Shown piece by piece: positions 9,112 through 53,934 of a stretch of 64,000 bases of DNA; within the stretch, counting starts at the first letter, position 1, and every line of letters begins with the position of its first letter. Origin of the DNA: Patescibacteria group bacterium (GTDB lineage Bacteria; Patescibacteriota; JAHJAL01). The stretch covers positions 15,093 to 79,092 of the forward strand of contig JBAZOB010000001.1 of assembly GCA_041648895.1 (NCBI GenBank). The letters run 5' to 3'. The position numbers and the translations under genes were made by a program. The notes under the pieces are model-generated. The model was given only the letters and a program-made list of their open reading frames with translations, did not search any database and was not told the origin of the DNA.

Positions 9112-9280
9112 AATTACAAATTAATGGGTTGTACTTATTAGTCATTTCCCCTGTCATCCCCGCCTTGAGCGGGGATCTCATATGTAACGCGTTTATTACA
9201 GTCTTGATGATGAGATCCCCGCTCAAGGCGGGGATGACATATAAAGAGATTAATTCAGACTACTCATTAATTTGTAATTT
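9112..9280. repeat. GC-rich palindromic MITE-like element, copy 2, with AATTACAAAT heptamer-repeat arms.
   Basis: AATTACAAATTAATGGGT ... TGTCATCCCCGCCTTGAGCGGGGATCTCAT - spacer - ATGAGATCCCCGCTCAAGGCGGGGATGACA ... ACTCATTAATTTGTAATT. The outer arms are also inverted repeats. Confidence 0.8.
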
Positions 9281-10114: not shown

Positions 10115-10150
10115 AGTTTTTACTCCAAAAAATTATTTAATAATTACAAA

Positions 10151-10528
10151 TTAAAAGGGCCAGGTGCTTGATTGATAGTTAATGGCGTTTTCGATGGAAA
10201 CTTTGATGGCATAGGCGGCGAAAACGACCAGGAGGCCAATGACGGCGAAGGTGAGGGTTTTGGTGGCTTTTTTGTGGGTTTCTTCGTTGCCGGCGGAGGT
10301 AATGTATTGAAACCCGCCGAGGATAATAAAGACAACGGAAACGAGGCCGGCGATACTCAGGGCGTAATTGATGATGGCCATTATCAGGTCGACAGCATTG
10401 TCAAAAGGTAGGGGATTGTCGGGGGTAACGACATTAATTTCCGGTGGGGCAGCCAATATTTTTGGTGGATGCCACATGACCAGGCTGGTAAAAATAAAAG
10501 ACAGGATTGTGTGGTTTATTTTTTTCAT
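10151..10528 (-). CDS. TrbC/VirB2-like T4SS pilin paralog 3.
   Basis: ILGGFQYITSAGNEETHKKATKTLTFAVIGLLVVFAAYAIKV, with a signal peptide. Confidence 0.7.
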   Translation of the reverse strand: MKKINHTILSFIFTSLVMWHPPKILAAPPEINVVTPDNPLPFDNAVDLIMAIINYALSIAGLVSVVFIILGGFQYITSAGNEETHKKATKTLTFAVIGLLVVFAAYAIKVSIENAINYQSSTWPF

Positions 10529-10614
10529 GAGGGAAATATTCGCTGGTCAATTATTAATATATTATGAATAATTACAAATTACAAATGGTATAGATGGTGT
10601 GTTAATTTCTGTTG

Positions 10615-10988: not shown

Positions 10989-11055
10989 TATCGATAATTA
11001 ATTACAAATTACAAATTTAGTTTGCCATCCTGAATATTAATAATACTTATAGTCA

Positions 11056-15030: not shown

Positions 15031-15212
15031 TACGAATTATGAATTAACGAGTGGTGTTAATTAATAACTTGATCCACCTACATATGTCATCCCCGCCTTG
15101 AGCGGGGATCTCATTATCAAGACTGCAATATATACGTTACATATGAGATCCCCGCTCAAGGCGGGGATGACAGATAAAGAGATTAATTCATATAACTCGT
15201 TAATTCGTAATT
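15031..15212. repeat. GC-rich palindromic MITE-like element, copy 3 in inverted orientation, with ACGAATTATGAATTAACGAGT arms.
   Basis: TGTCATCCCCGCCTTGAGCGGGGATCTCAT ... ATGAGATCCCCGCTCAAGGCGGGGATGACA. The spacer is the reverse complement of the copy-2 spacer. It lies in the divergent region between Hsp20 and the amidase gene. Confidence 0.8.
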
Positions 15213-15292
15213 TATTATTTATCCATTTACAAAATCATCAAATATTGATACAATATATAGATTTTACAATAAAACAAAAATATAAATTAGAT

Positions 15293-17800
15293 ATGAAAAA
15301 CAAAAGTATTATGGAAGCTTTTAGCGAAGAATATTCTTCAGGTAAGGGGTGGGCGGCCGAACAGGAGAAGAAATCGTGGTTTTTTGTTTGGTCAGCGCGA
15401 ATGGCCAGTTTATTGATGGTACTGCTGATACTTTTTTTGGGGATATTTGCTTTCGGTTATGCCGATAATATTGGTCAGGTTAAGGTGGACAGATTGCAGG
15501 ATACTGATTTTGTGTTGAAAGAAGCCAACGTGCTGTCGACCGACTGGTCGGGTGACGCGGGTGAACAAACTTCAACTTTGACTATTCCAACGGGTCAAAA
15601 TATTTTTTCCTATGTTTCGGACGCGCGGGAAGCCAAGCGTTCTTTCTGGATGATCGCGGCCAAGTTGTCAGCCAAGATTCCGGCGGGGACAAAGGTGGTG
15701 GGAAAAGTTAGAGTTAGTAATGATAGTAGTACTTGGTCGGAGTGGTATGATTTGGATTTGGAGAAGCTATCAAATGAGCAGAACAAAGATGTGACGGAAG
15801 TGCCGATTTTATTGGAAAAGAAATCAAAATATGCTCAATATTCACTGGTTTTGTCGAGCGACGATGTTAATTTAACTCCGGAAATATATGATGTTGATTT
15901 GGTACTGATTGATCCCGATGATAAATTGGCTTTAGTTAAAAAGGGCTGGAGTAGTCTGATGGCTCGAGTTTCGGGTAGTACGGGAGTTGATGTTATTAGT
16001 CGTAGTGAGTGGGGGGCCGATGAATCGATCATGACTTGGGATGATAAAGAATACGCGCCAGTGGAGCAGATTGTGGTTCATCATACCGCTGGTAGTAATA
16101 ATTCACCTTTGGATCCGGCGGCGGTAGTGCGGGGTATATATTATTTTCACGCGGTGGAGAAAGACTGGGGAGATATTGGTTATAACTATATTATTGATCA
16201 AGATGGCAATATTTATGAGGGCCGGGAAGGTGGCTTCGGAGTGGTAGCGGCTCATTCTTCGGGTAACAATTATGGTAGTGTGGGAATTGCGATTATTGGG
16301 AACTATAGTGAAGATGCTCCGGCCAGTCAAAGTATGGACGGCTTAATAAATTTAGTCGAATATATTGGGTATCAAGGTGATTTGGATTTAACCACCAAGC
16401 ATAATTTTGAAGGTAATAATGTACCGGTGGTGGCGGGGCACCGTGATGTTAACCCGACTGAATGTCCAGGCGATGTTTTGTATGCCATGTTGCCGGATGT
16501 AGCAATTGCGGCTAGCCAGGGTGAGAATACTTTACCAGCCAAGACTTACCAGGCACAATTGGTACATCAGTCACAAAAAAGTTTAGATTTAAAATCAGGC
16601 CAAATACAAAAAGTGGTGGTGACTTACAAAAATTCTGGTTCAGCGGTGTGGTTAAAACAAAGAGGGGAAGTAGAGTTGGTGCCGGTTGATCCATATCCGC
16701 GGAGCAGTGGTTTTGCCACTCCGGACTGGGATAGTGTTGAAGTGGTGGGGACAATGAATCAGGTGACGGTGATGTCGGGTAATGAGGCGACATTTGATTT
16801 GCCACTCTTCGGGATCGATCAGGCTGGTCAATATGGGGAAAAATTTGCCTTGCTGGGTCCGGATGGTTTGATTAGTGGGACTGAATTTTCAGTGAATATC
16901 GATAATCAAAAGAGTAGTGTGGACTCGGGTGAAGATAGCAATATTGATAATCAAAATGACCAAATAATTGATGACGATAACGATAGTGACAATAATACCA
17001 ATGATATCAATGATTCCGATACTAGCGTCGTCGAAGCTGATTGGTATCATTCGGCTTGGGTGGCGCAAACTGATCATTTGACTTTGTACCCGGGTGAGGA
17101 AAAATCTGTTTGGATTGATTTTAAAAATACTGGTAAAACTCCTTGGTATAAAGATAGCGATTATCCAGTTCGTTTAGGGACGGCCAATCCTCAAGACAGA
17201 AATAGCGCTTTGGCCGTGGTAGATAGTGGATGGCTCTCGGCTAATCGGATTGAAATGAGTCAATGGAGCGTGGAACCTGGAGAAGTGGCTCGTTTTCGTT
17301 TTACCTTGAAGGCGGGCAATAATAGTTCGGGGGTGTATCAGGAATATTTCCGGCCGGTGGTGGAAAATGTAACCTGGATGGAAGACCAGGGGGTGTATAT
17401 CCAAATTGAAGTGGTGGAGTCGCAATATATGGCTCTGTTTGTGGAACAAAGTGAAAATCCAATCACTTTATCCAGTGGTCGTAAAGCTAGATTGTGGGTG
17501 GAATTAAAAAATACCGGTAACGTGGTTTGGACCAAAGATAGTGATACGCCGGTTCGTTTGGCGACTGATCGTGATCCCGATCGAGCCAGCATTTTTTATT
17601 CACCCGGGTATTGGATCAGTGATAATCGGGCGGCCAGTATGAAAAAAAATGCGGTGTCGCCGGGTGACAGCGTCCGTTTTGAAGTGGTGGTCACGGCTCC
17701 CGATGAGCCGGGTTCGTATCGGGAATATTTTCGACCGGTGGCGGATAATATGCAGTGGATGGATGATTTAGGAATTTATTGGGATATCAATGTGGAGTAA
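15293..17800 (+). CDS. Secreted/membrane-anchored N-acetylmuramoyl-L-alanine amidase (PGRP/Amidase_2 domain) with an acidic linker and 2-3 C-terminal ~110-aa FW-type repeats.
   Basis: VVHHTAG...GDIGYNYIID.DGNIYEGR...AHSSGNNYGSVGIAIIGNY...HRDVNPTECPG (Amidase_2). Repeats of the form WV.FKNTG..W....D.PVRLGT..P.DR.S...W.S.NR......V.PGE.ARF.F...GVYQEYFRPV.EN..WM.D.GVY. The start is taken at the first ATG after the upstream repeat; the tracked ORF begins at 15098 inside the MITE. Confidence 0.75.
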   Translation: MKNKSIMEAFSEEYSSGKGWAAEQEKKSWFFVWSARMASLLMVLLILFLGIFAFGYADNIGQVKVDRLQDTDFVLKEANVLSTDWSGDAGEQTSTLTIPTGQNIFSYVSDAREAKRSFWMIAAKLSAKIPAGTKVVGKVRVSNDSSTWSEWYDLDLEKLSNEQNKDVTEVPILLEKKSKYAQYSLVLSSDDVNLTPEIYDVDLVLIDPDDKLALVKKGWSSLMARVSGSTGVDVISRSEWGADESIMTWDDKEYAPVEQIVVHHTAGSNNSPLDPAAVVRGIYYFHAVEKDWGDIGYNYIIDQDGNIYEGREGGFGVVAAHSSGNNYGSVGIAIIGNYSEDAPASQSMDGLINLVEYIGYQGDLDLTTKHNFEGNNVPVVAGHRDVNPTECPGDVLYAMLPDVAIAASQGENTLPAKTYQAQLVHQSQKSLDLKSGQIQKVVVTYKNSGSAVWLKQRGEVELVPVDPYPRSSGFATPDWDSVEVVGTMNQVTVMSGNEATFDLPLFGIDQAGQYGEKFALLGPDGLISGTEFSVNIDNQKSSVDSGEDSNIDNQNDQIIDDDNDSDNNTNDINDSDTSVVEADWYHSAWVAQTDHLTLYPGEEKSVWIDFKNTGKTPWYKDSDYPVRLGTANPQDRNSALAVVDSGWLSANRIEMSQWSVEPGEVARFRFTLKAGNNSSGVYQEYFRPVVENVTWMEDQGVYIQIEVVESQYMALFVEQSENPITLSSGRKARLWVELKNTGNVVWTKDSDTPVRLATDRDPDRASIFYSPGYWISDNRAASMKKNAVSPGDSVRFEVVVTAPDEPGSYREYFRPVADNMQWMDDLGIYWDINVE

Positions 17801-17855: not shown

Positions 17856-17883
17856 TAATAATTTGTAATTAAATTAATAACAA

Positions 17884-18321
17884 ATGAAAAAGAATATTAA
17901 AACAAAAAATAAAGTTATGCGAAAAGATGTCAAAGAAAGTGTGGTGGAGATTATGCGGCAGGAATTGAAAGATATTGATTGTTTGCTGGATGATTATTTT
18001 GAAGAGCAGCCCAATGAGATGGGGCAAAAGTGGTTCAGTTTCAATGAATCGAGGGTAATGGGAGCAGATGAAGTGTTGCGGATTAGTGTGTGGGGACTCA
18101 ATGATGATATTGTCAGGCATAATGATTTTTTTGATTCATATTATACCTGGGTGGGTGATATGGTGGCTGGTTTGGACAAGGCGGGAAAATTACAGTTCAA
18201 GCGCGAGAATACTCGTAAGGGTGAGGTAGCCGATGAGATTTTTGAGTTATTCAAAGGCTTTTGTGGGGGCAAGGTGGCGTGCAGTTTTCCGGAAGTAATA
18301 GAACTGAAATTGATAATTTAA
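17884..18321 (+). CDS. Hypothetical protein.
   Basis: 145-aa ORF with a plausible ATG; no motif recognised. Confidence 0.4.
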   Translation: MKKNIKTKNKVMRKDVKESVVEIMRQELKDIDCLLDDYFEEQPNEMGQKWFSFNESRVMGADEVLRISVWGLNDDIVRHNDFFDSYYTWVGDMVAGLDKAGKLQFKRENTRKGEVADEIFELFKGFCGGKVACSFPEVIELKLII

Positions 18322-18369: not shown

Positions 18370-20397
18370 ATGGCGCAAGTCGATAAAAACCAGAATAATC
18401 AGATTGGTTCGTCAGCGGATAAGATATCCAATGTTGGGCGAAATATGATTAATTTTGCCAAGGGAAAAAAGGAAGTATCGGAAGTAAGTAATTTAGATAC
18501 CCCGGTGAAAGATGATGGTGACTATGATATTGCGTCGGCGGGGAATAAGGTGGTGCAGAGTGGCCAAATGATGATTGAAAGCGCAGATGTTGGTAAGAAA
18601 AAAATCGAATCGGCGTGGGATGAGAATCAATATGTCAATAAATTAGACAATGTTGATTATGATTATCGAAAGCATATATTGACAGATATGCAAGAAAAAG
18701 GATCAGTGACGCCTGAGCAATTACAATATTTAAGAGAAAATGATCCGCAGGGGTATAAAGCAGTGACAGGTCTTATCAAATCTCAATCACAAGTTGGAAT
18801 TACTTCACAAGAGAAAGGGGCGCAGGAGACATATAATGAGGCTTTGACTCAAGCAGAAATAGAAGGTGTGCAAGTGGCAGCGATGGGGGGAGTTGGATAT
18901 TTGGTGATGAAGGGGATTGAACTTGGGGGTAAGAAAGTAGTAGTGCCAAAGATACTAGAAACAGCCAAAGTGGAAGAGGAAGATTTAGTAAATCCTGCCG
19001 GGGGCGAAAGTGTGGAAAATTACTTGCTGGTCAAAGTAGGCAAAGGAGAGAAATTATCAACGGAAGAGATAGAATATATCAAGTCACTGCCTCAGGAACG
19101 ACAAGAAAGATTGATGGAGGCGATAGGCGGTATACAAAAATCTAATGTTGAAATCAAAGATACGAGACAGACACAAGAGAGTTATTTAGTCGGAACAAAA
19201 TCAGGTGCTGAATCGGCGGTAGAGACGGCTAGCATGTTGTATAATCCATCAAACAAGCTAGCAGATAAAGTGAGCAAAACTGTCGCGAAAGCGGAAGAAA
19301 AGTTGGTAACTAAAGGTGGAAAAATCGGACTAATGTATGAGGCACTGAACAAAGGATTCGTTGGAACGCAGAAAAAAGTTGTAGGATTTTTGACTAAACC
19401 GATTAGTAATTTGCTTAAGTCAAATAAAGGAAAAATAAATGATGAGATGGGGGAAGCGGCTATAAAAGTTGATGATGCGTTGACTGATAGCAAGGAGATG
19501 GTTAAGGATTTGGAACCTCAGGAGATTAATTATAAATCCGATGATGTAAAGAATAGTGATCCAGTATTGGATGAATTATTGGGAACGGTTGATGAGGAGG
19601 TAACAGAAAAGGGTGGAAAAGTGATGGAAGATGTTATGCAATATGATAATTGGTACTATAATCCTAGCACAGGCGCTAAGGAATATTATGATGAATTTGG
19701 TAAAATAGTGAAAATCGAGCCGCGTACTTATGGGGAAAAATTCCCGGTGGTGTATAATTCGACAGTTATGATTGATGGAATTGAATATAATGTTCTTAAG
19801 GAAAAAGGAAAAGTTATTTTGGACCCAGGCCGCCCCAAGTTAGAGTCTGGGTCAGCGAATTTGCTAAGCATTGATGACTTACAAAGTGGAGAAGTTAAGG
19901 GTTATCTAGCAGATATTGATATGATGCCCAAAAAACTGATAGACAATTTAAAAGAAGGTGGGGTTAATGTGGTCATTGGTAATACAGATGTTCCCGGATT
20001 GTCTAATAATAGGCTTCTCGAGGGTAAACCCAGGGGGTGGGATCAAGATAATATGTCAGGTGTCAAAGCATGTTATGATCCTGTTAATAAGATAGTATAT
20101 GCTGGCGAAGGGATGGGTGCTAGTACGAGCCCGGTTTTACATGAATACGGTCATGCAGTAATTGATTTGTTTGATTCGACTGGCAACCCAAAAATTATTG
20201 AAGCTCATGAACGTTTATATGATAATCTTGGTGATTATTTAAAACAGGGAGGTCCGGGAGGTGAAGCGGGAGTTGATGAGTTTTTTGCTGAGTCTTTTGC
20301 TGATTATATTAAGTTGCCAAAAAAACTTTTTGTAGCAAGATATGATGAACAGTGGCATGGCCAAATGAAAGAAATAATAAAAAATAATTCGCAATAG
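18370..20397 (+). CDS. Large hypothetical protein with a C-terminal HExxH zinc-metallopeptidase-like domain, possibly ATLF/PPEP-like.
   Basis: C-terminal SPVLHEYGHAVIDLF (HExxH), then about 35 aa later DEFFAESFADY, which could supply the third zinc ligand. No signal peptide. Confidence 0.45.
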   Translation: MAQVDKNQNNQIGSSADKISNVGRNMINFAKGKKEVSEVSNLDTPVKDDGDYDIASAGNKVVQSGQMMIESADVGKKKIESAWDENQYVNKLDNVDYDYRKHILTDMQEKGSVTPEQLQYLRENDPQGYKAVTGLIKSQSQVGITSQEKGAQETYNEALTQAEIEGVQVAAMGGVGYLVMKGIELGGKKVVVPKILETAKVEEEDLVNPAGGESVENYLLVKVGKGEKLSTEEIEYIKSLPQERQERLMEAIGGIQKSNVEIKDTRQTQESYLVGTKSGAESAVETASMLYNPSNKLADKVSKTVAKAEEKLVTKGGKIGLMYEALNKGFVGTQKKVVGFLTKPISNLLKSNKGKINDEMGEAAIKVDDALTDSKEMVKDLEPQEINYKSDDVKNSDPVLDELLGTVDEEVTEKGGKVMEDVMQYDNWYYNPSTGAKEYYDEFGKIVKIEPRTYGEKFPVVYNSTVMIDGIEYNVLKEKGKVILDPGRPKLESGSANLLSIDDLQSGEVKGYLADIDMMPKKLIDNLKEGGVNVVIGNTDVPGLSNNRLLEGKPRGWDQDNMSGVKACYDPVNKIVYAGEGMGASTSPVLHEYGHAVIDLFDSTGNPKIIEAHERLYDNLGDYLKQGGPGGEAGVDEFFAESFADYIKLPKKLFVARYDEQWHGQMKEIIKNNSQ

Positions 20398-20408
20398 AGG
20401 ATAATAAA

Positions 20409-20615
20409 ATGATAATGATTTCAAAAGGTAAAGATAATGAGTTATATGTGCCGATAAGGGTCGAGGGAGGAGGAATGATTGGAGATGGCATGAAGGTGGT
20501 ACGTCCTGCTGATGAGGATTATGAGATGTATTTTGAGAAATATCAACGTGATCAGAAGCTGGAAGAACAGTTTCAAAAAGAGATTTCAAAATACATGAAG
20601 AAAAATATTGGCTAG
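20409..20615 (+). CDS. Small hypothetical protein of 68 aa, immediately downstream of the HExxH protein.
   Basis: Tightly spaced same-strand ORF, followed by the terminator-like hairpin AAACTGTATTTTTACAGTTTT. Confidence 0.35.
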   Translation: MIMISKGKDNELYVPIRVEGGGMIGDGMKVVRPADEDYEMYFEKYQRDQKLEEQFQKEISKYMKKNIG

Positions 20616-20763
20616 GTAAAGTTTAGTAATCAGCTAAGTGATTTAGGGGTATTGTGGATTAGTTTTTATATAAAACTGTATTTTTACAGTTTTTATTTTG
20701 TTTTAAGCTTACTTTGATAGAATTAATATAGAATAATTTATCAGATTAAAATTTGTAATTCGT

Positions 20764-20793
20764 CCGCCCGAGGCGGATGCGCCTTGGGCGCAT
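20764..20793. repeat. GC-rich double hairpin (CCGCCCGAGGCGG, ATGCGCCTTGGGCGCAT) flanked by AATTTGTAATT heptamer motifs, upstream of the SpoIID-domain gene.
   Basis: Same composite of AATTWGTAATT arms plus GC hairpins as the MITE-like family. Confidence 0.6.
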
Positions 20794-20814
20794 AATTTGT
20801 AATTAAAAAGTTGT

Positions 20815-23013
20815 ATGAAAAAGAATATTTTGTTTTTAGCGCTGATATTAACCATGCTAATGTCAAATTTGAATATGGTGCGGGCGGCTGATTATCAGGC
20901 GCAGTGGACAGGGCAAAGTGAGTATTTGACCATGACAGAAGGTGAGGAACAGACGGTGTGGGTGGAGTTTAAAAATACCGGTAGTGCCGATTGGCGGCAA
21001 ACTGGTCAGAACGCGGTGCATTTGGGAACGGCGAAAAATCTAGACCGGGCCAGTTCTTTTTATGATAATACTTCGTGGTTAACCAGTAATCGGATTGAGA
21101 TGAAGCAATCGGTGATTCATCCCGGTGAAACGGCTCGTTTTGAGTTTAAGATTAAGGCTCCATATAACTCGGGTGTTTATCAAGAATATTTTCGATTGGT
21201 AGCGGAGAATGTATCTTGGTTAAATGATGTCGGTTTATATTGGGAATGGCGGGTGATCGGGGCGGCCGGTTATGAGGACATGTGTATGAGTCGGGATAGC
21301 GTGGTTCAGTCAAGCGGGTGTGTGGTGCCCGAGCCGTGGATGTATGATTCGACTTGGAATGGTCAAAGTAAATATTTAACTTTGGCTCCGGGCGAGAGTC
21401 GAGAAGTGTGGGTGGAATTTGTTAATGATGGGGTAGCGACTTGGTATCAGAACGGTGATTTTGCGGTTCATTTAGGTACCGCCAATCCAATTGATAGAAA
21501 TAGTAATTTTGTCGATACTGATTGGCTTTCTACCAATCGGTTGGTTTTGGAACAAACCAGCGTTAAGCCGGGCGAGACGGGTCGTTTTTCTTTTACGGTT
21601 AAGGCTCCAACTAAAACGGGTGTTTATTATGAATATTTCCGGCCGGTGGTAGAAAATGTATCTTGGTTGCGCGATCAGGGGGTGTATTGGATGTTTGAAG
21701 TAGCGAACGCGGCCAATGATGATTCTTCGGATGATGATGCGGTTAGCGATAGTTGGGCGGCTAAGTTGATTGAACAAACTGGAAATCCGACTTTTGTGGT
21801 CGGTGAGGAAGCGGAAGAATATTTAACAGTGAAATACAAAAATATTGGCCAAACGACATGGGAAAAAAGTGGCAGTAACGTGGTCCAGTTGGCGACTAGC
21901 CAACCCAATGACCGCAATAGCGGTTTTATGACGAGTGATTGGCTCAATAGTCATCGGATTGCAATGCAGGAGAGTAGTGTGGCGCCGGGTGAGTACGCGA
22001 CTTTTAAATTTCGGGTATCTCCGGGGGAGACAGTAGCTCTGGGGACGCATAATGAACATTTTAATTTGGTGGCCAATGACAATTTCTGGTTTAGCGGGGT
22101 GGGGGTGGCCTGGAACATGGTTTTGGCGGGGGTGTCGGATGCGGTGGTAGTGACGGCCGATGGTAATTTTGATGTGAAAGATGGGGTAACGGGCAGTGTT
22201 TTGGCCACTTTGAGTTCAGGGCAAAAAGTTAATGTCAAATATGCTGGTGGCAATTATCAAATAACTTGGCCGGGTGGGTCTAAAAGTACTAGTAACTATG
22301 TGCGGCTAACGGGTAAAAATGGGGCGATTATGGAGGTAGTTTCATATAACGATATTAAATCATGGAATAGCAGTCTCAATGATAATAAATTTCGGGATAC
22401 GATTGAGGTGCGTTATTCGACCAATACCAATCAATTGTGGGTGATCAATGAATTACCCTTGGAAGATTATGTGGCGGGAGTGGCGGAGACGGGTAACTCT
22501 TCACCGACAGAATTTTTAAAAGCCATGACGATTGCTGAGCGAACTTACGTGATTTATCATCATAACCGTGGGGGACGTCATCCGGAAAATTATGTTGATC
22601 TGTACAATAGCGTCAACGGAAATGGTGATGACCAGGTTTATCGCGGCTATGGCTTTGAACAGCGCAATGATGAGGTGACCGAGGCAGCTGCCGATACAGT
22701 TGGTAAAGTGGTGACATATAACAATAATGTAGTCGTGACACCCTATTTTTCACATGCCGATGGCCGCACTCGCAGCTACAAAGAGGTGTGGGGTAGTGAC
22801 GTGGCCTGGTGTGTGTCAGTTGACGATCCTTATACAGCGGGGATGAGTTTGCTTGGTCATGGCGTAGGTATGAGTGCTTTAGGGGCGCAGATGTTTGCGG
22901 AAAAAGAGGGCAAAACTTATGACTGGATTTTAAAATATTATTATACTGGTATCGATATCTCCAATTATGATACAGCGAGTGAGAGAATCAGGGTCGGGAT
23001 TTATCATTTGTAA
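20815..23013 (+). CDS. Secreted SpoIID/LytB-domain protein (amidase enhancer / lytic transglycosylase-like) with three N-terminal FW-type repeats.
   Basis: Signal peptide MKKNILFLALILTMLMSNLNMVRA. Three roughly 115-aa repeats are homologous to those in the amidase. The C-terminal SpoIID domain reads ELPLEDYVAGV...ERTYVIYH...YGFEQRN...TPYFSHADGRTRSYKEVWG. Confidence 0.75.
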   Translation: MKKNILFLALILTMLMSNLNMVRAADYQAQWTGQSEYLTMTEGEEQTVWVEFKNTGSADWRQTGQNAVHLGTAKNLDRASSFYDNTSWLTSNRIEMKQSVIHPGETARFEFKIKAPYNSGVYQEYFRLVAENVSWLNDVGLYWEWRVIGAAGYEDMCMSRDSVVQSSGCVVPEPWMYDSTWNGQSKYLTLAPGESREVWVEFVNDGVATWYQNGDFAVHLGTANPIDRNSNFVDTDWLSTNRLVLEQTSVKPGETGRFSFTVKAPTKTGVYYEYFRPVVENVSWLRDQGVYWMFEVANAANDDSSDDDAVSDSWAAKLIEQTGNPTFVVGEEAEEYLTVKYKNIGQTTWEKSGSNVVQLATSQPNDRNSGFMTSDWLNSHRIAMQESSVAPGEYATFKFRVSPGETVALGTHNEHFNLVANDNFWFSGVGVAWNMVLAGVSDAVVVTADGNFDVKDGVTGSVLATLSSGQKVNVKYAGGNYQITWPGGSKSTSNYVRLTGKNGAIMEVVSYNDIKSWNSSLNDNKFRDTIEVRYSTNTNQLWVINELPLEDYVAGVAETGNSSPTEFLKAMTIAERTYVIYHHNRGGRHPENYVDLYNSVNGNGDDQVYRGYGFEQRNDEVTEAAADTVGKVVTYNNNVVVTPYFSHADGRTRSYKEVWGSDVAWCVSVDDPYTAGMSLLGHGVGMSALGAQMFAEKEGKTYDWILKYYYTGIDISNYDTASERIRVGIYHL

Positions 23014-27451: not shown

Positions 27452-27466
27452 ATTTCTAATTTGTAA

Positions 27467-29119
27467 TTATTTAAGGCTGTGTTTAATAAAATTAACAAAA
27501 AGTGGATGGGGGGCAAGGGGGCGGGATTTGTATTCGGGGTGAAATTGAACGCCGACAAAGAAGGGATGAATTTTATTGGATAGTTCGATGGCTTCGACTA
27601 GCTCGCCGTCGGGGGAGGTGCCGGCAATAATGAGACCGGCTTTTTCGAGTTGTTTGCGGTATTTATTATTGAATTCGTAGCGGTGGCGGTGTCTTTCACT
27701 GACAATGTATTGGTTGGTGGCTGATTTATCAGTTGAATATTTAAGATATGATTCGGCTAGTTTAGTTTTGGGTTGAAGCACGCAGGGATAGGCGCCGAGG
27801 CGAATAGTGCCGCCGTACTGATGTTTGGCGAGATATTCTTTTTGACGGGGCATAATGTGAATGACGGGATATTTGGTTTGAGAATTAACTTCTTCGCTGT
27901 TGGCTTGGTCGAGCCGGCAAACATGACGGGCAAATTCAATCACGGCCATTTGCATACCGAAACAAAGTCCTAAAAATGGTATTTTTTTCTCCCGCAGGTA
28001 TCTGATAGCGGCAATTTTGCCTTCCACGCCGCGTGATCCCCAGCCTTGCGGGATGATGACGCCATCAAAATCGGCTAATTTTTTGACGTTGGCGGGATTT
28101 TTTTCAAAATCGGCCGAATTAATCCAGGTAAATTCCGGTTGTACCTGGTTGGCCCAGGCGCCGTGTTTGACAGCTTCGATAACTGATATATACGAATCAG
28201 ATAAGGTAAAGTTGCCAATGTCGAAATATTTCCCTACCATGGCGATTTTGACTGTTTTTTTGATGCCGTCAATTTTCTTGATCAGATTGTGCCAGGTGGA
28301 AAATTCATTTTTTTTCGGTTGAAGATTTAGTTTTTTGATAATTTTGTCATCCAGTTGTTGATCTTTGAATATACCGGGAATGCGGTAGATAGTATCGACG
28401 TTGGGGTTGGAGATGATGTTTTCGACGTCGATACTGCAGTTGCGAGCCAAGGTGGCGCGGCGCGGTTCGTCCATATAGGTGTCGGCGCGGCCGATGATGA
28501 AATCAGGCATGACGCCGGAGCTCATCAGGGTGCGGACGGAGGTTTGAACGGGTTTAGATTTCATTTCGCCCAGGAAAGAAGGGATAGGAAGATAGCCAAC
28601 ATGGACATGAATGACGTCGTTTTTGTGGCGGTATTTCATGATACGGTTGGCTTCAATAAATAATATATTTTGATATTCACCGACGGTGCCACCAATTTCA
28701 ATGAGTACTACCTCAGCTTTACTAACCCGGCCGGCTTCTTCAAAGCGGCGGATCATTTCCTCGGGGACATGGGGCACAATTTCCACGTCTTCGCCTTCAT
28801 ATTCAAAAGCTCTTTCTTTGCGAATAATTTCTTGATAGACCATGCCATTGGTGAGGTAGTTGGCACGTTTTAGATCGCTGTTTATAAATCTCTCATAGTT
28901 GCCAATGTCCTGGTCGCATTCTAGGCCGTCGTCGGTAACAAAAACTTCGCCGTGTTCCTGTGGGCGGATGGTGCCGGCGTCGACGTTCATGTAGGCGTCG
29001 CATTTGACGCAAGTAACGCGGATGCCTTTGGATTTTAGTAGTAGAGCAATGGAAGCGGTGGTAATTCCTTTTCCTAAACCCGAAATTACCCCACCGGAGA
29101 CAAATATGTATTTGGTCAT
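27467..29119 (-). CDS. pyrG: CTP synthase.
   Basis: MTKYIFVSGGVISGLGKGITTASIALLL at the N-terminus. The C-terminal glutamine amidotransferase domain has GLCFGMQ and the HRHRYE motif region. The start is moved to the ATG matching the canonical MTKYIF N-terminus; the tracked ORF uses an upstream TTG. Confidence 0.85.
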   Translation of the reverse strand: MTKYIFVSGGVISGLGKGITTASIALLLKSKGIRVTCVKCDAYMNVDAGTIRPQEHGEVFVTDDGLECDQDIGNYERFINSDLKRANYLTNGMVYQEIIRKERAFEYEGEDVEIVPHVPEEMIRRFEEAGRVSKAEVVLIEIGGTVGEYQNILFIEANRIMKYRHKNDVIHVHVGYLPIPSFLGEMKSKPVQTSVRTLMSSGVMPDFIIGRADTYMDEPRRATLARNCSIDVENIISNPNVDTIYRIPGIFKDQQLDDKIIKKLNLQPKKNEFSTWHNLIKKIDGIKKTVKIAMVGKYFDIGNFTLSDSYISVIEAVKHGAWANQVQPEFTWINSADFEKNPANVKKLADFDGVIIPQGWGSRGVEGKIAAIRYLREKKIPFLGLCFGMQMAVIEFARHVCRLDQANSEEVNSQTKYPVIHIMPRQKEYLAKHQYGGTIRLGAYPCVLQPKTKLAESYLKYSTDKSATNQYIVSERHRHRYEFNNKYRKQLEKAGLIIAGTSPDGELVEAIELSNKIHPFFVGVQFHPEYKSRPLAPHPLFVNFIKHSLK

Positions 29120-34209: not shown

Positions 34210-34283
34210 TCCGGAGTAGCTCAGCTGGTTAGAGCGACTGACTGTTAATCAGTAGGTCGTGGGTTCGAGTCCCACCTCCGGAG
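34210..34283 (+). tRNA. tRNA-Asn (anticodon GTT); no encoded CCA.
   Basis: Hand fold: acceptor TCCGGAG/CTCCGGA, D-arm GCTC-AGCTGGTTA-GAGC, anticodon stem ACTGA/TCAGT with loop CTGTTAA, T-arm GTGGG-TTCGAGT-CCCAC. Confidence 0.8.
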
Positions 34284-35768
34284 TTTGTAAGAACACTCTT
34301 TAGCCTGCAGAAGAAGGTCGAAGGGTGTTTTTAGTTTGTAGATTATGTTTTCGTCTTTCAGTTGTAAGTTCGAAAATACGAATTTGAGTAATTGCCGTTT
34401 TTTGTCTATTTCCGAACTTTTGGCAAAAATTTGAGGAGCTTTGGAACAGACATTTAGTAGAAAGGTAACTGATTTTACGAATTTTTCATCAGCCTCAGTA
34501 TGATCTTTCATAGACTGAGTAATTTCATATTGTCTATTTTTTAAATCTTTGGCTTTTTTGTCATATTCATCTTGAGTAATACTCCTATTAATACAGAGGT
34601 CCAAGAGTGTATCAAGAGAGGTTTGAATTTTGGTGTATTCGGTTTGAAGTTCGGTAATACTATTTTTATGGTATTCAATTTTGGCTTGGTGAGTTTGGTT
34701 AACTTGATTAATTAGATCGGCGAGGATATCGTCCGGAATAACTAATAAATCGAGTATTTTATTGATTTGTTTTAATAATTGCTTTTCTTCCATTCTTTTG
34801 GCTCCGTGTTTGCCTTTTGATTCGGTACATTTGAGATAGATATATTTATTTTTCTTTTTGTCTGATGAGATAGCACATCCACAATCAGCACATTCAATCA
34901 TTCCTCGACCTAAAACTGAAGCATGGATAGTGGACCATTTGAAGGGTTTTTTGTGATAACCTTGGATAACATCCTGACAGCGATCAAATAATTCTTTAGT
35001 AATTAGATTACCGTGATTGTGCGGTGCTATATTTTCTTTAACTTTCATCATTCCGTAATAAAACGGATTGGTAATGACATGGTTTAACCGACTGTGGGAT
35101 AAATAATTATAGGGAGGTTTGTTGTTGGTAAGACCTTTCTTTTTCATTAAATTTGCTAATCCGCGGATGGAATAACTGCCGGTAGCATATAGGTTGAATA
35201 TTTCTTGGACCAAATACGCTCTTTGTTTGTCTATAATAATAATTTTTCTTTTTGTGATTGGGTCTTCTTCATTTAGATAACCAATTGGTGCTTTAGTTAG
35301 CCATTCGCCACGTTTGATTTTTCCTTCGAATGCGCGTTTGACGTTGTCGCTTATTGCATCGGAATAGTATTTGGCTAGTCCAAGATTCATGGCGAAATGA
35401 AATTTTTCAACGGCGGATATATTGGAATTAATAACAAGGTTATCTGAAACAAAGTGCATTTCAATTTTATCCAACATTGTCATCTCGTACAGGTTGGATA
35501 TTCTTTTATCAAAAACATTTCGGGAAAATCTATCAACTTTATCAAAACAAATTACTAATTTTTCTTTTGATTTTTTGATGTAATCAATCATTTTGTCAAA
35601 ATCATCTCTTTTGTTTCGATATGCTCCTTCGTCAAAACTGTATTGTTTAACGATGGGGAGGTCTTTTTTTTGACAATATTTAATCATCCGATCAGTTTGA
35701 GCTGGTAGGGAATTACCAGCGTCTTTTTGCTCTTCGGTTGATACTCTGGCTAATATTATGGCTTTCAT
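34245..35768 (-). CDS. Large serine recombinase (resolvase catalytic domain, recombinase domain, zinc ribbon); integrase of the downstream island. The 3' end overlaps tRNA-Asn.
   Basis: N-terminal MKAIILARVSTEEQ...SLPAQ (catalytic Ser). FDKVDRFSRNV. Zn ribbon CADCGCAIS...C. The last roughly 13 codons run through the tRNA-Asn 3' half on the opposite strand. Confidence 0.75.
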   Translation of the reverse strand: MKAIILARVSTEEQKDAGNSLPAQTDRMIKYCQKKDLPIVKQYSFDEGAYRNKRDDFDKMIDYIKKSKEKLVICFDKVDRFSRNVFDKRISNLYEMTMLDKIEMHFVSDNLVINSNISAVEKFHFAMNLGLAKYYSDAISDNVKRAFEGKIKRGEWLTKAPIGYLNEEDPITKRKIIIIDKQRAYLVQEIFNLYATGSYSIRGLANLMKKKGLTNNKPPYNYLSHSRLNHVITNPFYYGMMKVKENIAPHNHGNLITKELFDRCQDVIQGYHKKPFKWSTIHASVLGRGMIECADCGCAISSDKKKNKYIYLKCTESKGKHGAKRMEEKQLLKQINKILDLLVIPDDILADLINQVNQTHQAKIEYHKNSITELQTEYTKIQTSLDTLLDLCINRSITQDEYDKKAKDLKNRQYEITQSMKDHTEADEKFVKSVTFLLNVCSKAPQIFAKSSEIDKKRQLLKFVFSNLQLKDENIIYKLKTPFDLLLQAKECSYKLRRWDSNPRPTD

Positions 35769-53074: not shown

Positions 53075-53701
53075 ATGTTAGTTTTTATAGATGAATCAGG
53101 TGATTCTGGCTTCAAGTTGCAAAAAGGTTCAACTACCAGTTTTGTGGTGGCTTTGGTGATATTTAATGAAAATTTAGATGCAGAAGAGACGGCAGTTGAA
53201 ATTAAAAAGTTTAGAAAAAAGATTGGCAAAACTGACCGGTTTGAATTTAAGTTTAATAAATGTAATAAAGAATTGAGAGTCGGTTTTCTAAAAGCAGTTA
53301 AGAAGTGTAATCTTCGGATAAGGGTAATTGTGTTTGATAAGGAAAAAATATATAGCATTCATTTAAAAAGGAAAACGGAGACTTTTTATAAGTTTGCCAT
53401 ACGTCAGGTTTTGCAGCACAATGGCAAGACTATCAAGAATGCCAAGATAAAATTGGATGGTTTGGGTGAGCGTAAGTTTAGGAAAGCTTTGACAACTTAT
53501 TTACGGAAATATTTGAATACTGATTATGAGAGGATTATGGATAATTTGCGTTTTGTTGATTCCAAGAGCAATGTATTGATTCAATTGGTGGATATGGTGG
53601 CTGGAGCTATAAGGATTAGTTATGATGCCAATCGTAAAGATGCTGGTGAATATAAAAAAATCATCAAGAATAGAATTGATGATTTGTGGGAGTTTGAATA
53701 A
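53075..53701 (+). CDS. DUF3800-family protein.
   Basis: N-terminal MLVFIDESGDSGFK is the diagnostic DUF3800 FIDESG motif. 208 aa. Confidence 0.6.
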   Translation: MLVFIDESGDSGFKLQKGSTTSFVVALVIFNENLDAEETAVEIKKFRKKIGKTDRFEFKFNKCNKELRVGFLKAVKKCNLRIRVIVFDKEKIYSIHLKRKTETFYKFAIRQVLQHNGKTIKNAKIKLDGLGERKFRKALTTYLRKYLNTDYERIMDNLRFVDSKSNVLIQLVDMVAGAIRISYDANRKDAGEYKKIIKNRIDDLWEFE

Positions 53702-53934
53702 AGTTTGATCTCGTTTCTATCCTAAGGATTCTTAGGAACGCTGCCATACGGCAACAGTTCGAAAACGAGATCTTTGTATTTAAAATTTATCATATTTGGG
53801 ATGATTTTTCAATAAAGCGGTTCGAACATCGTGTATTCACGCGGAGTTTTTGACACGAAGCTTGAATCTGTTTTGGTTTAGGTTTTTTTATATTTGATAT
53901 AGTTAGATTTGTAATAGGAGATAAGGAAATTGGA
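53702..53934. repeat. Conserved intergenic module, copy 3. It begins with a 66-nt multi-hairpin element, then GGTTCGAACATCGTGTATTCACGCGGAGTTTTTGACACGAAGCTTGAATC.
   Basis: GATCTCGTTT...AAACGAGATC is a 10-bp closing stem around the CCTAAG/CTTAGG and TGCC/GGCA hairpins. The downstream box is near-identical to copies 1 and 2. Confidence 0.7.

Follow-up and report, generated by a model that had tools for sequence, protein, structure and literature searches.

We report an analysis of two adjacent genes in a 64,000-nucleotide stretch of the metagenome-assembled genome of an uncultivated Patescibacteria group bacterium (GenBank assembly GCA_041648895.1, contig JBAZOB010000001.1, positions 15,093–79,092 of the forward strand), which is referred to below as the window. 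The genes encode proteins of 675 and 68 residues and are annotated at NCBI as hypothetical proteins (WC570_00120 and WC570_00125, respectively). On balance, they probably form a polymorphic-toxin-type cassette consisting of a peptidase effector and its cognate cytoplasmic neutralizing partner. The fold of the peptidase domain, its catalytic residues, its position at the extreme C-terminus and its tight, broad and reciprocal linkage to the small gene are directly supported; we infer that the partner inhibits the peptidase rather than activating or chaperoning it. The larger protein begins with a long hydrophilic region and ends in a zinc-peptidase domain of MEROPS family M34. The 68-residue open reading frame (ORF) lies 11 nt further downstream, at the coordinates assigned to it in an earlier sequence-only reading of the window. 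The spacer between the two genes, AGGATAATAAA, contains a Shine–Dalgarno-like AGGA immediately 3′ of the TAG stop codon and 7 nt 5′ of the partner ATG, which suggests that translation of the peptidase and partner genes is coupled.

The peptidase domain and its catalytic residues

Word-indexed homology searches with the full 675-residue protein and the 68-residue ORF returned only self-matches. When 1.84 billion cluster representatives were searched exhaustively with HMMER, 316 relatives of the larger protein were identified (E ≤ 1e-3; representatives at 50% identity), nearly all of which cover only residues ∼497–672. Pfam family ATLF (PF07737) matches residues 505–647 with a score of 29.1 bits (gathering cut-off 27.4) and also matches 54 of the 61 family members that were scanned; the match in PHROGs is to a ‘peptidase’ family. 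A profile constructed from a 39-sequence family alignment (A1) matches PPEP-1, PPEP-2 and PPEP-3 in the PDB with E values from 3.6e-15 (PPEP-1/Zmp1) to 1e-10, spanning almost the whole catalytic domain, and matches anthrax lethal factor (LF) at an E value of 3e-4. The AlphaFold model of the domain calculated from the same alignment has a predicted local distance difference test (pLDDT) score of 88.4 and a predicted template-modelling (pTM) score of 0.85. Its top 50 matches in the PDB are all PPEP-1, PPEP-2, PPEP-3 or the LF catalytic domain (probability 1.00), with TM scores of 0.64–0.72 to the PPEPs and a query-based score (TMq) of ∼0.61 to LF. The Pfam ATLF match, the profile matches and the confident PPEP/LF-like model therefore rule out a non-peptidase fold for the HExxH region, and residues ∼497–672 are, as modelled, a genuine M34 (anthrax LF/PPEP) zincin domain. 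The sequence-only reading had proposed this relationship from the HExxH motif VLHEYGHAVIDLF (His591, Glu592 and His595) and the segment DEFFAESFADY (Glu637 and Glu641); both are present, 34 residues apart, and the spacing is that of ATLF/PPEP-like zinc peptidases.

His591, Glu592, His595 and Glu637 are invariant in all 39 aligned sequences and correspond to His142, Glu143, His146 and Glu185 of PPEP-1, with HEYGH (591–595) aligned to HETAH. Glu637 faces the second glutamate of the Glu184–Glu185 tandem of PPEP-1 (PMC12828418) and is predicted to be the third zinc ligand, equivalent to Glu185. Other invariant columns are Tyr623, Gly634 and Ala640, while Gln626 and Glu641 are nearly invariant. Pro554, Arg555 and Gly556 are also nearly invariant and are followed by the consensus residue Trp557; this PRGW stretch aligns to VPKGW of PPEP-1. 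Arg555 and Trp557 match the basic and aromatic pair of the PPEP S-loop (Lys101/Trp103 in PPEP-1 and Arg111/Tyr113 in PPEP-3), and Lys101 and Trp103 of PPEP-1 close over the substrate (PMC12828418).

The clade is distinguished from the PPEPs by a seven-residue insertion, Y-x-Q-Q-G-G-P-G-G, the tyrosine of which (Tyr623 in the window protein) lies 14 residues before Glu637 and faces a gap in the profile-to-PPEP-1 alignment. In LF and PPEP-1, the oxyanion is stabilized by a tyrosine located seven residues before the glutamate ligand (Tyr728 and Tyr178, respectively). The window domain has no tyrosine there, the oxyanion tyrosine being displaced in the clade, and Tyr623 is a candidate stand-in for it.

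The nearest characterized relatives of the window domain are PPEP-1/Zmp1 of Clostridium difficile, PPEP-2 and PPEP-3 (MEROPS M34, EC 3.4.24.89), which share with it the fold and homology throughout the catalytic domain, the HExxH motif, the position of the third-ligand glutamate tandem and the Arg/Lys plus Trp/Tyr pair of the S-loop, at 12–18% identity in structural alignments. PPEPs are secreted by means of an N-terminal signal peptide, whereas the window protein has none and carries the domain behind a 480-residue region; His134 of PPEP-1 is a glycine in the window protein, as read from A1 and the PPEP-1 alignments. PPEPs have been reported only from Clostridiales and Bacillales, as secreted enzymes (PMC8610288). 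From its sequence we do not file the window domain as a PPEP, because it lacks a secretion signal, its oxyanion tyrosine is displaced, its host is outside the published range and any Pro-Pro cleavage by it would be conjectural.

A parallel in layout is CD1597 of C. difficile, which likewise has a PPEP-like domain following an extra N-terminal region, has no secretion signal and probably works inside a cell compartment (PMC11460543). It differs in being a spore-associated Firmicute protein without detectable protease activity, and no small partner is mentioned in the abstract of the article.

The LF catalytic domain shares with the window domain the Pfam family, the zincin fold and the HExxH motif with a downstream glutamate. 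LF is a 776-residue, four-domain protein that is delivered to eukaryotic cells by protective antigen, and we know of no gene for a cognate protein inhibitor. The LF domain acts as a toxin inside another cell and, by analogy, the window domain may do likewise.

The small partner family and the variable N-terminal regions

An alignment of the small partner family (A4) was used to construct a profile, which was run over six-frame translations of 45 fetched loci (484 kb). Each positive locus gave exactly one match, always beside the peptidase domain. For example, in a metagenome-assembled genome (MAG) of Peribacteria (L001) a 1548-residue homologue is followed by a 52-residue ORF that is 42% identical to the window 68-residue ORF. 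Adjacency was found in ∼15 independent lineages from Patescibacteria, Peribacteria, Armatimonadota, Actinomycetota and phage head modules, so that conservation of the small ORF next to homologues, on which its proposed pairing with the peptidase depended, was borne out. The positive lineages are the window pair, with its 11-nt spacer; L001 of Peribacteria; L039, a genome of the candidate phyla radiation (CPR) with the pair flanked by rpoC and rpsL; L002/L011 of Chthonomonadaceae, with a 4-nt overlap; two groups of Actinomycetota MAGs (L003–L006 with L008, and L009); three metagenomic lineages (L012/13, L014 and L027/28); four lineages of viral contigs (L023, L033/34/42, L040 and L041); and L025/26, in which the small gene is upstream of the peptidase gene and overlaps it. 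Seven of the lineages (L023, L025/26, L027/28, L033/34/42, L039, L040 and L041) were outside the training set of the profile. The gap between the two genes is mostly −5 to +16 nt and several pairs overlap by 4 nt. In L041 the two genes are convergent, and P0013/L037 and P0040 combine the peptidase and the small domain in a single polypeptide. The head module of L033/34/42 has the order small terminase, large terminase, portal, PPEP-like protein, small ORF and S78 prohead protease.

The linkage is reciprocal: a scan of viral contigs seeded only with small proteins identified three contigs, and the peptidase is adjacent in all three. The CPR-type partner alignment by itself gave no match in viral contigs. 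The partner is absent beside distant relatives of the domain, which are archaeal stand-alone proteins and viral proteins of ∼2000 residues with an internal domain. BLAST-level searches found no match to the peptidase domain or the partner among the cultured phages of INPHARED, and none to the peptidase domain among the plasmids of PLSDB.

The small proteins are 50–96 residues in length and share a core that reads approximately x-R-L-x-N-G-x-L-L-V-P-x-R-x-E-x-x-G-x-x-G-D-G-x-x-E-I-x-P-x-D-x-E-Y, followed by a variable, often charged, helical tail. The family has no significant match in Pfam, NCBIfam, PHROGs or the PDB, and the search of 11 members against Pfam found neither SuFu nor any other immunity family; the best weak match is to phrog_19659 (E = 0.009 for three of the 11). 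The pattern G-x-L-L-V-P...G-D-x-x-x-E-I suggested a swapped-hairpin antitoxin of the AbrB/MazE type. This was rejected, with hhalign giving a probability of 0.6% to hand-entered AbrB/SpoVT/MazE/PemI reference sequences, and no DNA-binding family (AbrB/MazE, ribbon–helix–helix or helix–turn–helix) in Pfam or NCBIfam matches the partner. The 68-residue ORF is a real gene, a member of an undescribed small-protein family that accompanies the peptidase domain. Separately, the gene for a distant relative of the peptidase, P0155, overlaps by 4 nt a downstream 66-residue ORF (L035 6843–7043; L036 2476–2676) in which a partner-like pattern, DGTLVL...GGLGQAQLRYPQDHPDY, can be seen by eye at a profile E value of only 0.88. 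The family probably extends beyond the reach of the profile.

As stated in the sequence-only reading, the N-terminal region of the window protein (residues 1–480) has no recognizable domain, none being found in Pfam, NCBIfam, PHROGs or PADLOC. It is hydrophilic (11.5% Lys and 10.4% Glu), with a highest 19-residue Kyte–Doolittle mean of 1.18; no signal peptide or transmembrane segment is indicated by hydropathy, and the N-terminus lacks hydrophobic character. AlphaFold run on the full-length sequence by itself gives a helical model of low confidence (pLDDT 36). The sole relative of the region is P0012 (469 residues), which matches residues 54–338 (E = 4.5e-33) and has no peptidase domain. The linker at residues ∼431–450 (19660–19720, DNWYYNPSTGAKEYYDEFGK) resembles, by eye, NIWRYYDPQTRKIIW in a 119-residue ORF downstream of P0012 (L038 2132–2491); it is also loosely like a single W-Y-Y...T-G hairpin of the choline/cell-wall-binding type, again by eye and without profile support.

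The defining trait of polymorphic toxins is an enzymatic domain that recurs at the C-terminus of proteins with interchangeable N-terminal regions. The clade has this organization: its C-terminal domain is preceded by many different N-termini, and P0012 has the N-terminal region of the window protein without the peptidase. In 126 of 149 representatives, no more than 30 residues separate the end of the domain from the C-terminus. The regions ahead of it are mutually unrelated and range from nothing (a 208-residue stand-alone protein in L011) to more than 1500 residues. Among 61 longer members, Mu-F is present in eight and portal in ∼9, and others carry ART, NUDIX, 2′-5′ RNA ligase-like or Hint domains. 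A trafficking association is seen only in the MuF and portal phage relatives; the window protein has no recognizable trafficking domain, and the type IV secretion system (T4SS)-like genes of the window are not conserved near homologues.

Genes upstream of the peptidase seem to vary with the N-terminal type. L001 (3529–3879) and L039 (7660–8001), which have the large CPR homologues, share a related gene of ∼115 residues that overlaps the peptidase start (BLASTP E = 3e-10), and L030 (3279–3461) and L037 (79–243), with shorter homologues, share a different upstream gene of ∼55–60 residues (E = 1e-5). Two CPR-type contigs carry the cassette at the rpsL–rpsG (S12/S7) locus: in L039 (7678–11170) it lies between rpoC and rpsL, and in L030 (3279–5347) it is convergent with rpsG in the usual place of fusA. 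With two cases only, this locus may be a recurrent insertion site.

Role of the partner

In the reading that we favor, the 675-residue protein would carry at its extreme C-terminus an M34 zinc endopeptidase domain that is catalytically complete as judged by its residues, and the lineage-specific, non-enzymatic N-terminal region would presumably set delivery or localization. The 68-residue partner would bind the peptidase domain in the cytoplasm of the producer and hold it inactive, and the peptidase, presumably after leaving the cell, would act on the proteins of another cell or on cytoplasmic proteins. The partner accompanies the C-terminal domain irrespective of what precedes it: nothing, MuF, a portal neighbor, giant CPR-specific regions or the window type. 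It thus behaves in an immunity-like manner, since it tracks the C-terminal domain and not the N-terminal type of one export route. The coupling, the fusions and the correlated divergence of the two proteins point to a physical complex. The partner is present in 15–17 of 17–19 signal-less lineages and absent in all three signal-peptide-like members (L029, L043 and L044; Fisher p = 0.006–0.03). This distribution speaks for a neutralizer over a cofactor, because a Sec-exported protein that folds outside the cell needs no cytoplasmic neutralizer, whereas an obligate cofactor would still be needed. From the gene neighborhood, we favor a cytoplasmic inhibitor or immunity protein. The effector–immunity pair suggested by the sequence-only reading has therefore gained a peptidase fold and a conserved adjacent partner, and the inhibitor or immunity role continues to be drawn from the gene neighborhood.

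Known toxin systems have a similar organization. An LF-like metallopeptidase, Tox-ALFMPTase, is a recognized polymorphic-toxin domain (Zhang et al., 2012, PMC3482391), and as in the clade it forms the toxic C-terminal part of multidomain proteins whose genes adjoin an immunity gene. It is found mainly in toxins of Actinobacteria, Bacteroidetes, delta-proteobacteria and Firmicutes that are delivered by PVC or the type II secretion system (T2SS), whereas the hosts of the clade include CPR bacteria; its listed immunity protein is of Imm-SuFu family 2 (PMC3482391), to which the clade partner, being not SuFu-like, is unrelated. Metallopeptidase domains occur in 20% of the MuF toxins of temperate phages, with immunity genes downstream of the toxin genes (Jamet et al., 2017, PMC5576092). 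Relatives in the clade are fused to Mu-F or portal, or stand between portal and prohead protease, with the small gene following; the portal-adjacent phage members occupy the slot of MuF toxins in the head module. The window protein differs in having no MuF or portal domain and a non-phage chromosomal neighborhood.

Several points weigh against the favored reading. Part of the correlation between peptidase and partner divergences (Mantel r = 0.84, p = 2e-4) reflects shared ancestry. Signal-peptide-like N-termini, which occur in ∼3 of 150 representatives, were assigned by a crude hydropathy rule; for one of the three members concerned, the sequence stops just 78 nt downstream, and two signal-less lineages (L030/31 and L032) have no partner. 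Classical immunity proteins are not typically fused to their toxins, as would be the case in P0013 and P0040. Export of the window protein is a conjecture, because it has no recognizable trafficking domain or secretion signal. Finally, Tyr178 of PPEP-1 faces a non-Tyr column, which leaves the oxyanion tyrosine without a counterpart at the canonical position, and no proteolysis in vitro was observed for CD1597, a PPEP homologue that is not secreted (PMC11460543); for these two reasons, catalytic activity is not guaranteed.

The strongest rival, to which we assign an appreciable minority chance, is an intracellular toxin–antitoxin or abortive-infection module in which the peptidase would stay in the cell and the loss of a labile antitoxin, on stress or phage infection, would free the protease to act on the cell's own proteins. 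The stand-alone 208-residue peptidase with its overlapping partner in L011/L002 adjoins VapBC-like genes; in addition, the interchangeable gene order (L025/26), the scattering of the cassette over unrelated chromosomal sites (including rpoC–rpsL in L039), the lack of a secretion signal on the window protein and the fused P0013 and P0040, which recall fused toxin–antitoxin proteins, would all suit such a module. The huge variable N-termini and the fusions to virion proteins (MuF and portal) would not, as these are a hallmark of delivered effectors; moreover, there is no match to a PADLOC defense system and, as described above, the partner is not AbrB/MazE-like and matches no DNA-binding family.

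We regard it as improbable that the small protein is instead a chaperone, adaptor or activator for folding, export or packaging of the peptidase. Such adaptors normally track the N-terminal trafficking module, whereas the partner tracks the C-terminal domain even in proteins that consist of this domain alone, and the signal-peptide-like members evidently fold and function without a partner. The tight coupling and co-divergence would suit any obligate binding partner, and an adaptor for a non-Sec route would be expected to be missing from Sec-type members.

Zincin-like metallopeptidases have been proposed to process polyvalent proteins of phages and plasmids (PMC5512222), and distant relatives of the domain are internal to viral proteins of ∼2000 residues, with polyvalent proteins among the BFVD matches. 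A self-processing peptidase that cleaves co-packaged proteins or the region N-terminal to itself, with the small protein timing the cutting, is nevertheless very unlikely here: the domain of the giant viral proteins is more distant, internal and without a partner, and many clade proteins comprise just the domain, which leaves no other part to be processed. A surface protease of the classical secreted PPEP type, freeing adhesins and encoded beside its substrate, or a cell-wall protease that works with the flanking hydrolases, is equally hard to credit: the PPEPs are the closest solved structures, the S-loop Arg/Trp pair is conserved, the gene lies between amidase and SpoIID-like genes and PPEP-1 and PPEP-2 have adjacent genes for surface substrates with PPxP sites (PMC12828418), but the 675-residue protein has no signal peptide or anchor, a Pro-Pro site, a signal peptide and an anchor are all missing from its 68-residue and 145-residue neighbors, homologous loci do not share the flanking hydrolases and PPEPs as defined are secreted Firmicute enzymes (PMC8610288), so that a secreted PPEP with an adjacent substrate is, by sequence, essentially excluded.

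A bolder extension of the effector–neutralizer reading, which we hold only tentatively and consider doubtful as a whole, is that the small proteins are the first dedicated protein inhibitors of M34 zincins and perhaps dock a near-invariant N-G-x-L-x-V-P hairpin in the substrate cleft as a non-cleavable pseudo-substrate, and that the clade they guard is a widespread cytoplasm-acting effector that is injected by phages along with their DNA and is delivered to host bacteria, or deployed against them, by genome-reduced Patescibacteria. Speculatively, the near-invariant L-x-V-P would occupy the S3–S1 subsites of a proline-directed cleft, and the novel N-terminal regions might specify the route by which Patescibacteria deliver the peptidase to host bacteria.

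Genomic setting and significance

Table 1. Positions of the cassette, its functional elements and neighboring features in the window (numbered from the first nucleotide of the stretch)
Feature	Position	Strand	Basis or remark
675-residue protein gene	18370..20397	+	ORF list; ATG start, TAG stop
N-terminal region, residues 1–480	18370..19809	+	K/E/V/G-rich
PPEP/anthrax LF-like zincin domain (Pfam ATLF, MEROPS M34), residues ∼497–672	19858..20385	+	Profile, model
P554-R555-G556-W557, PPEP S-loop equivalent	20029..20040	+	Alignment
HEYGH zinc-binding/catalytic motif (H591, E592, H595)	20140..20154	+	Family alignment
Y623 in family-specific Y-x-Q-Q-G-G-P-G-G loop	20236..20238	+	Invariant column
E637, predicted third zinc ligand	20278..20280	+	Invariant column
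11-nt spacer AGGATAATAAA	20398..20408	+	Sequence
68-residue partner gene	20409..20615	+	ORF list and family alignment A4
AT-rich 9-bp hairpin AAAACUGUA/UACAGUUUU, then T-rich tract, 3′ of the 68-residue ORF	20672..20704	+	Fold
145-residue ORF, function not assigned	17884..18321	+	48 nt upstream of peptidase gene
Amidase_2 protein, upstream flank	15098..17800		Pfam
SpoIID-like protein with signal peptide, downstream flank	20815..23013		Pfam
VirB4/TraG-type P-loop ATPase, 613 residues	580..2421	−	
Two very large TrbL/VirB6-like membrane proteins, 886 and 756 residues	4054..9025	−	

The likely transcription unit, as read from sequence signals, comprises the 145-residue ORF, the peptidase gene and the partner gene, because the 11-mer AATTTGTAATT precedes the 145-residue ORF (17860–17870) and not the peptidase gene, and a hairpin follows the small ORF. 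This hairpin has a folding energy of −8.2 kcal/mol (z = −2.4 relative to shuffled sequences) and, together with its T-rich tract, is the probable end of the transcription unit; a consensus terminator scan misses it, the stem having fewer than three G–C pairs. The 145-residue ORF has no family match in Pfam, NCBIfam, PHROGs or PADLOC and is dissimilar to the upstream ORFs of the homologous loci, including those shared by L001/L039 and by L030/L037. It was considered as a conserved third component, which is not supported, as it has no relative among the upstream genes of these loci; it is perhaps the first gene of the peptidase operon, and its membership of the module is doubtful.

The motif AATTTGTAATT occurs ten times in the window compared with 0.24 expected copies, and none of 100 shuffled sequences reaches ten. 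Copies are located at 9112–9122 (−), 9269–9279 (+), 10142–10152 (−), 10570–10580 (−) and 11000–11017 (−, two overlapping), and at 17860–17870, 20750–20760, 20794–20804 and 27458–27468 (all +). At the positions checked, which cover most copies, the motif lies a few tens of bases 5′ of a gene start on the same strand as the gene, and the SpoIID-like gene is also preceded by the motif. It is probably a promoter or 5′-leader motif specific to this Patescibacteria genome. Between two copies, just 5′ of the SpoIID-like gene, a G+C-rich 11-bp hairpin (CGCCCGAGGCG/CGCCTTGGGCG, 20765–20793, +) is conspicuous within the AT-rich intergenic region.

The sequence-only reading had placed the pair between cell-wall hydrolase genes and next to a T4SS. 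The Amidase_2 and SpoIID-like genes do flank the pair, but they are not conserved around homologues, and a functional link to them was rejected. The proximity to a T4SS is only loosely true: the T4SS-like genes lie 9–18 kb upstream on the opposite strand, beyond solute-binding protein, nucleotidyltransferase-like and Hsp20-like genes, and none are found near homologous loci, so that a functional link was again rejected.

Elsewhere in the window, the region ∼34200–56000 beside tRNA-Asn (34210–34283) is probably an integrated island. It contains a large serine recombinase (34245..35768, −), an SNF2-type helicase (1084 residues), a type III restriction-like helicase–endonuclease (1005 residues), DUF4391, an N6/N4 DNA methylase, an AAA ATPase and a radical SAM protein, and has a G+C content of 0.31–0.39 versus 0.40–0.48 across most of the remaining window. 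A DUF3800-IX RNA is matched by Rfam within this island (53703–53772, −; 62.2 bits versus a gathering threshold of 36.8) and adjoins an ORF at 53075..53701. The GC skew, (G−C)/(G+C), is positive in all 2-kb bins of the window (0.10 to 0.46). The strand asymmetry is unusually strong and is independent of gene orientation, because the skew is positive even at 1–14.9 kb, where minus-strand genes dominate.

No paper describing the pairing of this peptidase with a small partner was found. The peptidase fold itself is ordinary; the novelty lies in a conserved small partner that had not been described and in how widely the cassette occurs. The 316 representatives constitute a large sister clade of the PPEPs without secretion signals, which is C-terminal in effector-like proteins of CPR bacteria, Actinomycetota, Armatimonadota and phage head modules and nearly always occurs with members of a small protein family described in no database. 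If the partner is an inhibitor, it would provide a natural protein inhibitor scaffold for LF/PPEP-type zincins and a new immunity family for the polymorphic-toxin repertoire. The means by which Patescibacteria manipulate their hosts are little known, and these cassettes are concrete candidates for Patescibacteria effectors; their interest would rise if LF/PPEP-type zincins are inhibited by the partner or if Patescibacteria turn out to use the cassette as an effector against host bacteria.

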